Source: a virus (Duplodnaviria; Caudoviricetes). From it: DNA of 64,000 nucleotides. Within the stretch, counting starts at the first letter, position 1, and every line of letters begins with the position of its first letter. The notes under the pieces were generated by a model that ran no database searches, was not told where the DNA came from, and saw nothing but the letters and a program-made list of their open reading frames with translations. Shown here piece after piece: positions 5,046 to 48,403 of this stretch. The DNA is taken from positions 32,001 to 96,000 of IMG/VR virus record IMGVR_UViG_3300027734_003164; one strand, given 5' to 3'. Both the position numbers and the translations under genes were made by a program.

Positions 5046-5882
5046 ATGATACTAAAAAATGGGTCAAAAGGAGATGACGTAAAAAAACTCCAAGAAAAAC
5101 TAGGTGTTGAGGCAATTGGAACCTTCGGGCCTAAAACTGAAGCCGCTGTTAAAGCATGGCAAAAAGCAAATGGATTAAAAGATGATGGTATTGTAGGTGA
5201 TGCCACTTGGGCTAAACTATTTGGTAAGTCAGCTCCCGCAGCAACTGTAGTTAAAGAAGATGTGGTTATACCTTCAGGAGGACCGTTAAACATTGAAAAA
5301 TTAAAAGGTCATATCCCTGACGCAGTGTTGGCACAAATACCTGAAACCGCAGCTAAATTCAACATTACAAACAACTTGAGACTTGCACATTTTCTATCAC
5401 AATGTGGTCATGAGTCAGGTGGGTTTAAGGCCGTGAGTGAAAACTTAAATTACTCAGCGGATGGTTTGAAAAAAATCTTTGGTAAGTACTTTCCCGGTAA
5501 TCTTAACGAGTCTTATGCAAAACAACCCGAGAAGATTGCATCTCGTGTTTATGGTAATAGAATGGGTAATGGTGATGAAGCATCAAAAGAAGGTTATAAG
5601 TTTAGAGGTAGAGGATATATCCAATTAACAGGAAAAGCAAACTACACAAAGTTCACTCAATTTATTGGTGAGGACTGTGTTTCAAACCCTGATTTAGTGG
5701 CAACTAAATATCCTTTGGCATCTGCAGCGTTCTTTTTTGATTCAAACAAACTATGGGTAATTTGTGACAAAGGAGCCGATGATGCAACAGTCACATCAGT
5801 AACAAAAAGAGTAAATGGTGGAACATTAGGTTTATCTGACCGAATAAAACACTTTAAAGAATATTACAATTTACTTAAGTAA
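5046..5882 (+). CDS. Endolysin: peptidoglycan-binding domain plus glycoside hydrolase family 19
   Basis: N-terminal LKNGSKGDDVKKLQ..DGIVGDATW (PG_binding_1); LAHFLSQCGHESGG and FRGRGYIQLTGKANY (GH19). Confidence 0.92.
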   Translation: MILKNGSKGDDVKKLQEKLGVEAIGTFGPKTEAAVKAWQKANGLKDDGIVGDATWAKLFGKSAPAATVVKEDVVIPSGGPLNIEKLKGHIPDAVLAQIPETAAKFNITNNLRLAHFLSQCGHESGGFKAVSENLNYSADGLKKIFGKYFPGNLNESYAKQPEKIASRVYGNRMGNGDEASKEGYKFRGRGYIQLTGKANYTKFTQFIGEDCVSNPDLVATKYPLASAAFFFDSNKLWVICDKGADDATVTSVTKRVNGGTLGLSDRIKHFKEYYNLLK

Positions 5883-5887
5883 AACAC

Positions 5888-5916
5888 GAAACCCCTCTTA
5901 ACGGAGGGGTTTTTTA
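5888..5916. terminator. Bidirectional intrinsic terminator between convergent genes
   Basis: aaacccctct-taac-ggaggggttttttt. Confidence 0.8.
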
Positions 5917-6186
5917 TTAGTTATTAATCCAAGTCCAACCTAAAAGTAATTTAGAAAAATAACGGTGAATTATATTTGGTTTTTTTTCAAAAAAAATGTG
6001 AAAACTTTTACCAACTTTGTAATAACCAACTTGTTTTGGATATTTGATTACTGTTTGTGTAACTTCACCTTGTCTCAATATCCAATCATTTATTGAATCT
6101 TGGACTTCAATTTTTTTGTTATCCGTTTTTTGTTTGTTTTTTGTCGGATTAACTGCCCTTTTTATAGTTTTTTTTTCTTGTTCCAT
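5917..6186 (-). CDS. Hypothetical protein
   Basis: ORF within a co-oriented run. Confidence 0.6.
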   Translation of the reverse strand: MEQEKKTIKRAVNPTKNKQKTDNKKIEVQDSINDWILRQGEVTQTVIKYPKQVGYYKVGKSFHIFFEKKPNIIHRYFSKLLLGWTWINN

Positions 6187-6418: not shown

Positions 6419-6652
6419 TTAATTTGCTTTTTCTAATTGGTCTTCGTTAAAGATGTGAAGAAGTCCATATTCATCCATCTCACCAACGACTCTCGTATTA
6501 CCTTCAACTGTTTGGAACACAGATACGATTGTACATGGAAACTTATATCCTTTAACTTTAACTGCTTTATCACCTACTTTGAACTTAGGTTGATTTGACG
6601 GGAAATCTCCGTCTGATAATTGTGGGTCATCCCACGATGTATCTCTATTCAT
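6419..6652 (-). CDS. DfrB/R67-type (type II, SH3-fold) dihydrofolate reductase-like protein, 77 aa
   Basis: FPSN..FKVGDKAVKVKGYKF..IV..T..E..GLLHIF..LEKAN aligns almost gap-free with R67 DHFR as I recall it; lies 130 nt downstream of thyA. Confidence 0.55.
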   Translation of the reverse strand: MNRDTSWDDPQLSDGDFPSNQPKFKVGDKAVKVKGYKFPCTIVSVFQTVEGNTRVVGEMDEYGLLHIFNEDQLEKAN

Positions 6653-6784
6653 AATTTTATTTTTTAAATCTATAACCGATAAACCAAAAATCAATTCTGA
6701 AAAACCAATTACCGTCGTGTTTTCCAAAACCAATTCTAATCATCCGATTATTGTGGTTAAGTTTTATTTTATCAATTTTCATTT

Positions 6785-7864
6785 TTAATTAGAAAGCGGC
6801 ATTTTGATAGTCGGGTGTGATTGGTAATTTTTAAGTGTGAAATCACCAATAACATAAGATTCTATTGATGGTCTTGTTCCTTCATAAGTTGGAAATTGAT
6901 TAATAGTTGGTAACTCAAATGGTTCTCTTGTTAATTGTTCTTTAACTCCATCAATCTGATTTAAATAAATGTGACAATCTCCCATATTTGAAATCAACTC
7001 ATCAGGAACCATATTAACCTCCTTTGCCAATATTGTTAGAAGTAATCCATAAGACGCCAAATTAAATGGCGTTCCAAGTGGTACGTCCTGGCTTCTGCAG
7101 TTATACATTAAAGAGATTGCTCTGGTTGGAATATTAAATTTGTCACATTCTTTATGAACCTCATTATCTAAATCTATACTAACATTACTTTTTATAAAAT
7201 CAAACAGTTCATTTGAATCCAATAAATTAATTTGTTTAGTGTTTTTATAAGTGATTCTTTCACTAGCACTTAACTTTCTTGTATAAACTTGAAATCCATA
7301 ATGACAAGGTGGAAGAACCATTTGGTCCAACTCGCCTACATTCCATGCATTTACCATCAATCGTCTTGAGTCTGGGTTTGTTTTAAGGTCGTTGATTAGA
7401 TTTGTGATTTGGTCTATATTTCCCATTCCATGTTTATCCTCTAAAACTCCAGCGCTCCAACTTCGCCACTGTCTGCCATACACGGGACCTAACTCACCCC
7501 ATTTCTCAGCAAACTCATCATCGGTTTTAATTCTATCAACAAACATTTTTTCATCCAAATGTGGTTCCCAATCTTGAACCTGGTCTGAATAATTTTTATA
7601 AGCATCTCCTGTCCAAATATTGCAATCGTTTTCTAAAAGAAACTTGATGTTGGTATCTCCTCTAAGAAACCAAAGCAATTCAGTTACAATAGTTTTCCAA
7701 GCCATTTTCTTGGTTGTAAGAAGTGGAAATTTACCATCTTTAAATTTGTATCTAATAGACCGTCCAAATACACTTAAAACTTCACCATTACGTGTATTCT
7801 TTTTAATACCATTATCCAAAATGTCTTGAAGTAATGCTAAATATTGTTTATCTAATTCGTTCAT
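6785..7864 (-). CDS. thyA: Thymidylate synthase
   Basis: FPLLTTKK, ELLWFLRG, LGPVYGRQWR, SRRLMVNAWN, LPPCH, RSQDVPLGTPFN, GDCHIY. Confidence 0.97.
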   Translation of the reverse strand: MNELDKQYLALLQDILDNGIKKNTRNGEVLSVFGRSIRYKFKDGKFPLLTTKKMAWKTIVTELLWFLRGDTNIKFLLENDCNIWTGDAYKNYSDQVQDWEPHLDEKMFVDRIKTDDEFAEKWGELGPVYGRQWRSWSAGVLEDKHGMGNIDQITNLINDLKTNPDSRRLMVNAWNVGELDQMVLPPCHYGFQVYTRKLSASERITYKNTKQINLLDSNELFDFIKSNVSIDLDNEVHKECDKFNIPTRAISLMYNCRSQDVPLGTPFNLASYGLLLTILAKEVNMVPDELISNMGDCHIYLNQIDGVKEQLTREPFELPTINQFPTYEGTRPSIESYVIGDFTLKNYQSHPTIKMPLSN

Positions 7865-8060
7865 ATTCTTTTTGTTTTAAATCTAATTCACTTTCATAAA
7901 AATAAGGACAACACCACTTTCTTTCATCACAATTAAGCTTAATCATTTTTCCATTATAACAACCCACTTGAGTTACTGCAGCCCAACCACTATATCTAGT
8001 TTTAACTCTGTCACCTACTTTTAAGTCATCAAATGTCATTGTTCTCTTATTATTTCCCAT
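7848..8060 (-). CDS. Small SH3/KOW-like protein
   Basis: LKVGDRVKT motif. Confidence 0.45.
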   Translation of the reverse strand: MGNNKRTMTFDDLKVGDRVKTRYSGWAAVTQVGCYNGKMIKLNCDERKWCCPYFYESELDLKQKEYERIR

Positions 8061-31749: not shown

Positions 31750-32031
31750 TACATAACTATTCGCTAAATTGAAGGCTTCTGTAATGTCTTGATAATCATC
31801 ATCAGGAGCCAACAATTTAACGTCGCTATAGTTTTCGCCAGATTTATCTAATGTCATGAATATCATTGCAGGAACAAATTCATTTTTTTTTGCACTGACA
31901 AATTCTTCGTACTCGTCGGCATATTCAAAAATATCTCTATCGATAAATGCTACTTCATTATTTTGAAATAATTCTTTCAAATCTGTACAATGTGGACACC
32001 CTTTCATTGTAAATAAAACAATAACTTTCAT
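31741..32031 (-). CDS. Glutaredoxin/thioredoxin-like protein
   Basis: FTMKGCPHC; FVPAMIF. Confidence 0.85.
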   Translation of the reverse strand: MKVIVLFTMKGCPHCTDLKELFQNNEVAFIDRDIFEYADEYEEFVSAKKNEFVPAMIFMTLDKSGENYSDVKLLAPDDDYQDITEAFNLANSYVSE

Positions 32032-36751: not shown

Positions 36752-37435
36752 TTATTTTTTTCTATATTTATTTTTACTACTAATTATATTAATAACCTCA
36801 TCAAAGATAATCTTTTTTCTATTTAAAAACAAGTCCGTTTCAGAATAAAACCCATTGTAAATCTTTTCAATATCTGACATACCTGCCCACCCAACAAATT
36901 TATATTCTTTATTTTTTGGTCCGTAAAGTTTATTAACATTAACTCCAAATAATTTACCCATCCTTTCATTTAAAGTATTTATGAAATTAACTGACCCACC
37001 AACAATTCTCAAGTCCCCTCGTTTAGAATTATCTTTTTTGTCTTCATTTATTCTAATACACCCATCACCATCAAAATATCCTCGTAAAAAATGTCTTTCA
37101 AGATTTTCATCAATTTTAGGGTAACTTATTGTATAAGTTTTGTTTGGGTGTAATCCAATCTTTTTTAAGTCATTTATCATTTTCTTACTTGAAAACCCGA
37201 TTTCAGAAATTTCTCTATGATTACTTCTCCATATTTCAACTTCACTATCTAATAAGGATATAAACTTTTTTAATATATCTTCATCTTTATTATGAATTTT
37301 AATATTTAATTTATATCTATATTCTTTTGGATTGTCAATTAAACATCCATCAGCATAGATAAAACCAAGAAAATAAGCCTTATCTGGAGTATCAATCGTC
37401 TTAAAATAATCTTCATTAAATTTTTTTCTTATCAT
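36752..37435 (-). CDS. Free-standing LAGLIDADG homing endonuclease
   Basis: AYFLGFIYADG and FLRGYFDGDG. Confidence 0.9.
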   Translation of the reverse strand: MIRKKFNEDYFKTIDTPDKAYFLGFIYADGCLIDNPKEYRYKLNIKIHNKDEDILKKFISLLDSEVEIWRSNHREISEIGFSSKKMINDLKKIGLHPNKTYTISYPKIDENLERHFLRGYFDGDGCIRINEDKKDNSKRGDLRIVGGSVNFINTLNERMGKLFGVNVNKLYGPKNKEYKFVGWAGMSDIEKIYNGFYSETDLFLNRKKIIFDEVINIISSKNKYRKK

Positions 37436-47587: not shown

Positions 47588-48403
47588 TCATAAATATTCA
47601 AATAAATCTGAACATTCGTTTCGTAGTTTACGAAGAGCCTTTTCTTTGATTTGACGAACTCTTTCTTTTGTAAGACCAAAATCTGTACCAATATCTTCCA
47701 AAGTACGAGGTGTGCCGGTAATACCATAGTAATCCTCAATAATTACTTTTTCACGCTCATCCAATACTGACATAATTTCCATCATTTTAAGTTTGAGAGT
47801 GTCCTTTGTTGAAAACATTTCATCAGGTGAAACGATATTTTCATTTTTTATTACATCAATTAATGTGTCTCCGTCTTCATTGATGTGCATATCCAAATCA
47901 ACAATTTTTGGAAGTTGTGCAAACTTTGCGGATAATTCCCCGTTAGTTTTTTCCAAAACCTTTTTTTCTTTTTGCATATCTTGTACAACATTAACCGGAA
48001 GTCTGATTGTTCTTGAATTATCATTTAGTGATTGAAGGATTGATTGTTTAATCCACCAAACAGCATAAGAAATAAAACGGTTGTTTTTGGTCCAATCAAA
48101 ATTCTTAATGGCCTTTAATAGTCCATAGTTTCCTTCAGCAATTAAGTCTGATAGGTCAATACCTTGATTTTGATATTGTTTTGCCACGGTAATAACAAAA
48201 CGTAAGTTACCCTCTAAAAGTTCTTTATAGATTAACTCTTTTTCTCTTTCAGTACAGTTTTCATCTGTAATCATTTTTGAAAGGATTTTTTCCCTTTCAG
48301 GTGTCATTACTTTTAACTTTCGAATGTCTTTTAAATAAAGTTGAATTTCGTCTTGGTTAATCGGGTTTGAAGATTTAATTTCCTCGGTTTTCTCTCTTTC
48401 CAT
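47588..48403 (-). CDS. RNA polymerase sigma-70 family factor
   Basis: QLYLKDI (region 1.2), NLRFVITVAKQY, DLIAEGN, RFISYAVWWIKQSI (region 2), TLEDIG..LTKERVRQI (region 4). Confidence 0.93.
   Translation of the reverse strand: MEREKTEEIKSSNPINQDEIQLYLKDIRKLKVMTPEREKILSKMITDENCTEREKELIYKELLEGNLRFVITVAKQYQNQGIDLSDLIAEGNYGLLKAIKNFDWTKNNRFISYAVWWIKQSILQSLNDNSRTIRLPVNVVQDMQKEKKVLEKTNGELSAKFAQLPKIVDLDMHINEDGDTLIDVIKNENIVSPDEMFSTKDTLKLKMMEIMSVLDEREKVIIEDYYGITGTPRTLEDIGTDFGLTKERVRQIKEKALRKLRNECSDLFEYL

Follow-up and report, generated by a model that had tools for sequence, protein, structure and literature searches.

The window, by which we mean the whole 64,000-nucleotide stretch of viral DNA analysed here (positions 32,001 to 96,000 of IMG/VR record IMGVR_UViG_3300027734_003164), contains a short open reading frame (ORF) of 77 codons downstream of a gene for thymidylate synthase (thyA). 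It is probable that this ORF encodes a DfrB-type dihydrofolate reductase (DHFR) of the published cluster II, in other words a type II or R67-like enzyme, which would form a tetramer with a central tunnel and serve the adjacent ThyA. This reading is based on the homology, the fold and the assembly predicted here, together with the linkage of the genes and the identity to a protein already characterised, from which we infer by analogy that the window copy is active and serves ThyA during infection.

The argument starts from a homologue that has been characterised. BLASTP aligns the 77-residue protein with a phage protein, P0428, over the whole SH3 core, with 43 of 56 residues identical (77%, E 6e-32). 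A cluster look-up identifies P0428 (CAB4174422.1, from uncultured Caudovirales phage UFOVP972_42) as UniRef100_A0A6J5PTB3. K32, F38 and the LLHIF strand are identical in the two proteins, and none of the eleven core substitutions falls at these residues. Like the window protein, A0A6J5PTB3 is phage-borne, has its own ThyA on the same strand (2.6 kb downstream), and is missed both by the precomputed Pfam annotation and by NCBIfam. The two differ in architecture: A0A6J5PTB3 has 174 residues, with an N-terminal SH3 domain followed by a tail of ThyA-derived fragments, whereas the window protein has a 20-residue N-terminal tail and the barrel at its C-terminal end, and is encoded 132 nucleotides from thyA.

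A survey published in Mol Biol Evol in 2025 collected 386 DfrB homologues, clustered them and tested many of them (PMC12486381). Its Table 1 places A0A6J5PTB3 in cluster II, with an LHIF motif, which is listed among the active strand-4 motifs, and a local identity to DfrB1 of 24%. The protein was a tetramer by size-exclusion chromatography, gave trimethoprim resistance in E. coli, and had a kcat of 1.07 s-1 and a KM for dihydrofolate of 160 uM (PMC12486381). The same work describes four viral cluster II homologues, which are all ThyA-linked (in one case with 5 bp between the two) and come from genomes without FolA, and a natural fusion of DfrB to thymidylate synthase in the same cluster, with the motif LHIY, which is bifunctional (PMC12486381). 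PF06442 homologues had been placed in Pseudomonas and Vibrio phages earlier, among them the Vibrio phage protein DfrB-H4 (PMC9835603). Judged by its sequence, the 77-residue protein is close enough to A0A6J5PTB3 to be counted among the cluster II DfrB homologues. The original prediction of a type II DHFR, made without database searches, is supported by this 77% core identity to a tetrameric, trimethoprim-resistant dihydrofolate reductase; NADPH-dependent reduction that is insensitive to trimethoprim, shown for the homologue (PMC12486381), may by analogy be carried over to the window copy.

The identity to DfrB1 itself is 23%, and detecting the DfrB likeness of the 77-residue protein requires profile-profile or structural methods. 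Reference sequences of DfrB1 and other DfrB proteins were taken from plasmid records, and divergent phage homologues from GenBank phages. Using hhalign, the dfrB-like family was matched to five clinical DfrBs with a probability of 87.7%, and to 16 diverse DfrBs with 95.7% (P 1e-8), over 60 columns covering the whole barrel with one single-residue gap. As controls, 60 column-shuffled DfrB alignments gave 2.5% or less, and a reversed alignment gave 0.1%. The nearly gap-free alignment with R67/DfrB1 in the original prediction is therefore borne out against the real DfrB1 sequence, over 56-60 aligned columns. The aligned pairs include K32 with K32, which supplies the basic residue, Lys or rarely Arg, typical of the DfrB tunnel mouth, G35 with G35, F38 with W38, I42, V43, T48, E58 with E58, and G63 with G64. 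The strand-4 motif L65-H66-I67-F68 is aligned with V66-Q67-I68-Y69 of DfrB1, as had been proposed, and fits the DfrB tunnel-motif class of nonpolar, polar, nonpolar and aromatic residues. A shared FPSN sequence that had also been cited is coincidental, being part of the disordered N-terminal tail, where neither family conserves it.

A DfrB hidden Markov model (HMM) was also run unfiltered against 10,589 six-frame ORFs from 1.33 Mb of phage DNA. It retrieved essentially the dfrB-like family only, the best outsider having an E-value of 1.1, and divergent members of the family score up to 30.6 bits. When 49 diverse members were scanned with Pfam, 11 matched DHFR_2 below threshold (best E 8.3e-5), while every other Pfam family was matched by at most two members.

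The family is large. There are 590 homologue clusters at 90% identity (E<=0.01) within the size range searched, 124 further longer, fused forms, at least 932 representative clusters at 50% identity (E<=1e-3), and 320 confirmed loci in IMG/VR. The members are almost all unannotated: none of 240 listed family proteins has a precomputed DHFR_2 domain, and the sole precomputed Pfam domain is PF00303, on the fused protein P0506. Across the 49 diverse members, down to about 41% identity, K32, G35, Y36, R54, E58, L65 and H66 are invariant, and there is near-invariance at G27, D28, F38, F46, G51, V56, I67, F68 and Q72; the tail at the N-terminus varies or is missing. The core is 100% identical in phages where ThyA is 64% identical to that of the window, and 77-96% identical where ThyA is 56-75% identical. 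Such conservation fits a tunnel whose symmetry makes each residue act four times, and would also fit recent exchange of the gene as a cassette, or an extra constraint such as docking on ThyA.

AlphaFold predicts a disordered tail (residues 1-20) and an SH3-like barrel from about residue 22 to residue 77, which contains K32, F38 and the LHIF strand (65-68). The predicted local distance difference test score (pLDDT) is above 80 from residue 21 on, and below 50 at residues 1-5 and 12-17; the barrel has five strands, at residues 29-32, 39-47, 53-59, 65-69 and 73-75. The top Foldseek match in the PDB was R67 DHFR (1vie, target-normalised TM 0.82, root-mean-square deviation 2.2 A), and the R67 Q67H mutant (2p4t, 27% identity) was also among the top matches.

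A tetramer was modelled from four copies of residues 21-77 with NADP. Its interface score (ipSAE) was 0.91, whereas the best of the three controls had 0.00; the score may reflect model memory, since R67 tetramers are solved structures, and it shows likeness rather than binding. In calibration, 20 of 30 proteins solved as homomers reached the ipSAE mark, as did 1 of 23 solved as single chains. Three runs shared at least 94% of contacts, with partner pLDDT of at least 93. Strand 43-49 contacts its counterpart 43-49, and residues 65-67 contact 65-67; loop 36-39 meets loop 59-65, with F38 against residue 62 of the neighbouring dimer. These contacts agree with the published definition of a DfrB1-like tetramer, which has a B2-B2 monomer-monomer interface and an L1-L3 dimer-dimer interface (PMC12486381). 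The homotetramer suggested in the original prediction is thus recovered, as a confident model of R67-like assembly.

We propose that four SH3-like barrels would come together as a D2 tetramer, whose central tunnel would be lined by Leu65-His66-Ile67-Phe68 of each subunit, with Lys32 forming the rim. The tunnel would hold NADPH and dihydrofolate side by side, and hydride transfer would occur by proximity. In this way the enzyme would turn the dihydrofolate set free by ThyA in dTMP synthesis back into tetrahydrofolate, and recycling of dihydrofolate could become independent of the host FolA and insensitive to trimethoprim.

The partner in this proposal is ThyA. The product of the window thyA matches Pfam PF00303 with an E-value of 4e-89 and the NCBIfam equivalog TIGR03284 with 282.7 bits (cut-off 108), and the PPCH, RSxD and PFN(L/I)ASY motifs are legible in its translation. 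It is a genuine folate-dependent thymidylate synthase and a source of dihydrofolate. The pairing recurs in relatives. Among 80 IMG/VR loci anchored on the dfrB-like family, 66 have a ThyA within 10 kb, on the same strand every time (24 within 100 nucleotides, 43 within 1 kb and 59 within 3 kb); it lies upstream in 57 and downstream in 9. When relatives of the window ThyA are taken as the anchor instead, 30 of 80 loci have the family nearby; these locus counts do not represent independent events, many of the contigs being from related phages. A 60-residue form of the family is encoded between nrdB and nrdA, and here thyA lies some 4 kb upstream.

The pairing is also found in the unrelated Pelagibacter phage Kolga, which has a host of another phylum. 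Here the family domain is the C-terminal part of gp36, ending 4 nucleotides before gp35 (ThyA), so that the order of the two is reversed relative to the window. It is worth adding that in Kolga gp36 (L186 4725-5177) the domain stands behind a weak match to DUF1599, 'nucleotide modification associated domain 1' (21 bits, cut-off 25), and that gp36 is followed by ThyA and then by a MazG/PRA-PH-like pyrophosphohydrolase.

Other enzymes of the same pathway were searched for in 25 IMG/VR records that carry the family. ThyA (PF00303) is present in 23 of these, including all five that are near-complete. Neither ThyX (PF02511) nor DHFR_1 (PF00186) was found in any of the 25, the five near-complete records included. 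In the window, DHFR_1 matched none of the 30 ORFs of 150-270 residues, nor the dfrB-like ORF itself. Both the linkage to thyA in relatives and the lack of a type I DHFR had been named in the original prediction as points that would bear on it, and both were found, the latter in the window ORFs and carrier records searched.

A number of results weigh against the assignment. The 77-residue protein has no match to Pfam DHFR_2 (PF06442), the profile proposed in the original prediction as a check, even at E<=10, and none to NCBIfam trim_DfrB (NF000331); BLASTP gives no alignment with DfrB1 at E<=100, and the protein itself scores only 9.6 bits with the DfrB HMM built here. Foldseek gives PWWP, Tudor, SAWADEE and KOW domains E-values that match those of R67 (3.6e-3), and the fold alone therefore cannot discriminate. 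Some members of the family adjoin DNA methyltransferases, with no thyA within 5 kb. FolA was expected in ThyA-bearing relatives that have no dfrB-like gene, and this test of complementarity failed: it was found in none of 21 such relatives, which include two near-complete records and the complete genome of Flavobacterium phage immuto. Finally, the kcat/KM of A0A6J5PTB3 is 0.007 s-1 uM-1, the lowest of the tested set and about 14-fold under that of DfrB1, and the protein favours binding two NADPH, being described by the authors as 'more of a binder than a catalyst' (PMC12486381).

With regard to the sequence searches, active A0A6J5PTB3 likewise has no NCBIfam match or precomputed Pfam domain, and we conclude that the curated DfrB models are too narrow. 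PHROGs gave no relevant match for the 77-residue protein, and R67 was not found in PDB sequence searches with either the single sequence or the family profile. A single-sequence PDB match to phosphoglycerate mutase (E 0.023) was dismissed as spurious. Trp38, which is characteristic of DfrB, is replaced by Phe38, which is nearly invariant in the family; Trp occurs in a few divergent members such as P0243.

Because ThyA relatives without the dfrB-like gene also have no FolA, absence of FolA does not discriminate within this phage group, and for the same reason the gene is seen as an accessory to the phage ThyA, not a requirement. Phage immuto, the nearest cultured relative, has thyA and no dfrB-like homologue in its whole genome. 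The earlier suggestion that a type II DHFR is the partner of ThyA stands, with a qualification: the linkage recurs, and was already published (PMC12486381), but a phage ThyA can do without the gene.

The authors of the survey suggested that nucleotide binding may be the primary function of the LHIF protein (PMC12486381). An explanation along these lines would keep the same fold and tetramer, and make the binding of nucleotides or NADPH the selected function (as a hand-off, a buffer, or a scaffold or regulator for ThyA or for deoxynucleoside triphosphate synthesis), with reduction of dihydrofolate as a weak side activity. It would account for the preference of the characterised LHIF homologue for two NADPH over NADPH plus dihydrofolate, and for its roughly 14-fold lower efficiency than DfrB1 (PMC12486381). 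It would also fit the conservation of the core beyond that of ThyA (SH3 77-100% identity where ThyA has 56-75%), the related ThyA-carrying phages that manage without both the gene and FolA, the form encoded between nrdB and nrdA, and the fusion to the weakly matched DUF1599 domain in Kolga. Nevertheless we consider it unlikely. The homologue does reduce dihydrofolate, with a kcat of about 1 s-1, and gives trimethoprim resistance, and the natural fusion of the same cluster is bifunctional (PMC12486381). A protein that consumes dihydrofolate would be expected to accompany ThyA, and the family does co-occur with ThyA alone and in no case with ThyX. Strong conservation is itself expected if each residue serves four times in a symmetric tunnel.

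A related and speculative idea is that the LHIF clade is a dedicated partner of ThyA, docking on the ThyA dimer to channel dihydrofolate, or supplying or buffering NADPH. It is prompted by a core more conserved than ThyA, by its movement as a cassette, with re-insertion on one or the other side of thyA, by natural chimeras with ThyA fragments, and by the preference of the sole characterised member for two NADPH. We rate it as improbable; if it were true, this branch would have its main home, and possibly its origin, in phages and not in bacteria.

It is very unlikely that the 77-residue protein is a generic small SH3- or Tudor-like phage protein, acting as a protein- or nucleic-acid-binding module, whose likeness to R67 arose by convergence or chance. 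PWWP, Tudor, SAWADEE and KOW domains do score nearly as well as R67 in Foldseek, curated families give no matches, and a second small ORF with a faint 'GDRV..SGW' likeness lies on the other flank of thyA; but the core is 77% identical to a protein of measured DHFR activity, hhalign scores it much higher than any shuffled control, and DHFR_2 is the sole Pfam family matched repeatedly by members. As for a chance ORF in AT-rich DNA that is no real gene, its shortness and the lack of an evident Shine-Dalgarno sequence upstream count for next to nothing beside the conservation that refutes it (590 homologues at E<=0.01, 932 representative clusters and a near-invariant protein core).

The DHFR reading can be compared with three known systems. 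Clinical DfrB1-DfrB10 (R67; PF06442; structures 1vie, 2rk1 and 2p4t) share with the window protein a disordered tail followed by an SH3-like barrel of some 57 residues, the residues K32, G35 and E58, and the type of strand-4 motif; the D2 tetramer predicted for the window protein is held together by the same pair of interfaces as theirs. R67 tolerates His at the position of Gln67 (the Q67H structure 2p4t), where the window protein has His66. The differences are the low identity and the replacement of VQIY by LHIF, of W38 by F38 and of H62/P63 by Glu/Tyr; in addition, clinical DfrB genes are found in integron cassettes or Burkholderiales chromosomes, whereas the window gene is in a phage beside thyA. 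The PF06442 homologues of cluster I type in Ochrobactrum phage ZX86, Rhizobium phages and Pseudomonas phage PS-1, with which the Vibrio phage DfrB-H4 (PMC9835603) is grouped, are also phage-borne proteins with the DfrB fold, and for some homologues of this type DHFR activity has been demonstrated experimentally. They differ in being 48-68% identical to DfrB1, in keeping VQIY and W38, and in often lying inside larger proteins; no annotated thymidylate synthase was present within 3 kb in the five contexts inspected. Finally, T4 frd-td and the protozoan DHFR-thymidylate synthase follow the same logic, of a dihydrofolate reductase beside or fused to the thymidylate synthase that produces dihydrofolate, but use the unrelated FolA-type fold (PF00186), which is monomeric and Rossmann-like.

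The idea, the kind of enzyme and its pairing with ThyA were known already, and what is added here is the scale of the clade. As ThyA-linked viral cluster II homologues in genomes without FolA have been reported (PMC12486381), the original prediction amounts to an independent re-derivation of a published conclusion; the phage reservoir of DfrB-like enzymes that it envisaged is likewise supported, and likewise published (PMC12486381). The value of the present analysis is chiefly for annotation, and for showing that the clade is large and phage-centred. A gene left blank by Pfam, NCBIfam and PHROGs gains a name and a biochemical function tested in a homologue, and the same naming reaches the whole of a large, mostly phage-borne family, with the clusters and IMG/VR loci counted above. 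The published picture rested on four viral cluster II homologues; pairing with ThyA now appears as the rule across many aquatic phage contigs, in carriers that range from jumbo phages of about 290 kb to a SAR11 phage. For resistance surveillance, profile screens based on PF06442 or NF000331 would miss this trimethoprim-insensitive clade.

Table 1. Coordinates of the dfrB-like gene, its neighbours in the window and inserted genes in relatives
Feature	Position	Strand	Remarks
dfrB-like gene, 77 residues plus stop	6419..6652	-	ATG-started ORF 6422-6652, stop codon 6419-6421
intervening ORF, 41 residues	6657..6782	-	conserved ORF; PHROG 38838 match
thyA, folate-dependent thymidylate synthase, 359 residues with internal insertion	6785..7864	-	PF00303, TIGR03284
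inserted genes in relatives	L008 5439-6014; L003 5171-5995		

The three minus-strand genes of the window follow one another in the order thyA, 41-residue ORF, 77-residue ORF (Table 1). The dfrB-like ORF had originally been described as lying 130 nucleotides downstream of thyA; the ORF holds, and the spacer is in fact 132 nucleotides and is not empty, being filled by the 41-residue ORF. Several metagenome gene calls use a 104-residue, TTG-started version of the dfrB-like gene (6419-6733), which overlaps the conserved 41-residue ORF in another frame. Because this overlap excludes the longer form, and because close relatives of the protein, of 77-78 residues, begin at ATG, the 77-residue ATG form is taken as real.

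The 41-residue ORF has a counterpart of equal length, with 76% nucleotide identity, in a 636-kb uncultured huge-phage record (LR756504.1; L002 3020-3145, minus strand), and its product matches PHROG 38838, of unknown function, with an E-value of 5.9e-9. It resembles a small mobile gene. An RNA element such as a tetrahydrofolate riboswitch was considered as the cause of conservation in the thyA spacer and rejected, there being no Rfam match at this place and the 41-residue ORF accounting for the conservation. A terminator-like site was sought between thyA, the 41-residue ORF and the dfrB-like ORF and none was found, and for this reason the dfrB-like gene is probably co-transcribed with the phage thyA.

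On the other flank, a 70-residue ORF (7848-8060, minus strand) overlaps the start of thyA by 17 nucleotides. Its start 'LKVGDRVKTRYSGW' recalls 'GDRVRKKSGAAW' of DfrB, and its middle is rich in Cys; it is conserved in relatives (L022, L024 and L028), and its match to the DfrB HMM is insignificant (E 7). It is the second SH3-like ORF to which the original prediction had pointed.

The arrangement around thyA varies among relatives. In two of them (L020 and L021) the SH3 protein is 100% identical to that of the window, while the adjoining ThyA is 64% identical and the spacer is different, at about 1 kb. The core and ThyA identities suggest that the module of dfrB-like gene and thyA is a mosaic, in which the small gene is swapped among phages. 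Genes that vary between relatives also occur between thyA and the dfrB-like gene; they include a Tad3-like (PF25185) anti-defence candidate and, in another lineage, a 274-residue ABC_membrane_3-like protein. In L082 (4581-6966) the dfrB-like gene (64 residues) overlaps the start of thyA, which is interrupted by an insertion of about 0.7 kb with a 245-residue ORF. The N-terminus of this ORF (IIYKTTNNVNGKIYIGK) reads by eye like a candidate GIY-YIG homing endonuclease, and the layout is like that of the T4 td intron.

Several longer members of the family (P0428, P0506 and P0490) are chimeras of an SH3 domain and pieces of ThyA. The tail of P0428 (residues 95-166) aligns to ThyA residues 104-123 and 189-255, and P0506 (317 residues) contains ThyA residues 87-123 and 194-359, without the segment of the catalytic Cys. 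From these alignments, they seem to have arisen by recombination at thyA and not to be functional fusions. A further metagenomic member, P0258 (192 residues), is a natural tandem with two DfrB-like SH3 domains per chain, whose motifs are VHIF and LFIF. We take this arrangement to echo engineered tandem R67 constructs.

The window has about 30% G+C, with nearly all genes on one strand. Its thyA is nearest to that of Flavobacterium phage immuto, with 67% nucleotide identity, and close relatives of the dfrB-like gene are found on IMG/VR contigs of about 290 kb, with CheckV completeness of 93-99%. On both grounds, the window most likely belongs to a large phage of an aquatic Bacteroidota-type host. 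Rfam matches to 'Phe_leader' at 5856-5978 correspond only to a hairpin that is rich in G+C and has U tracts on both strands; it probably serves the convergent genes on its two sides as a bidirectional terminator. Other window genes encode a LAGLIDADG endonuclease (36752-37435) and, further on, a sigma-70-like factor (47588-48403).

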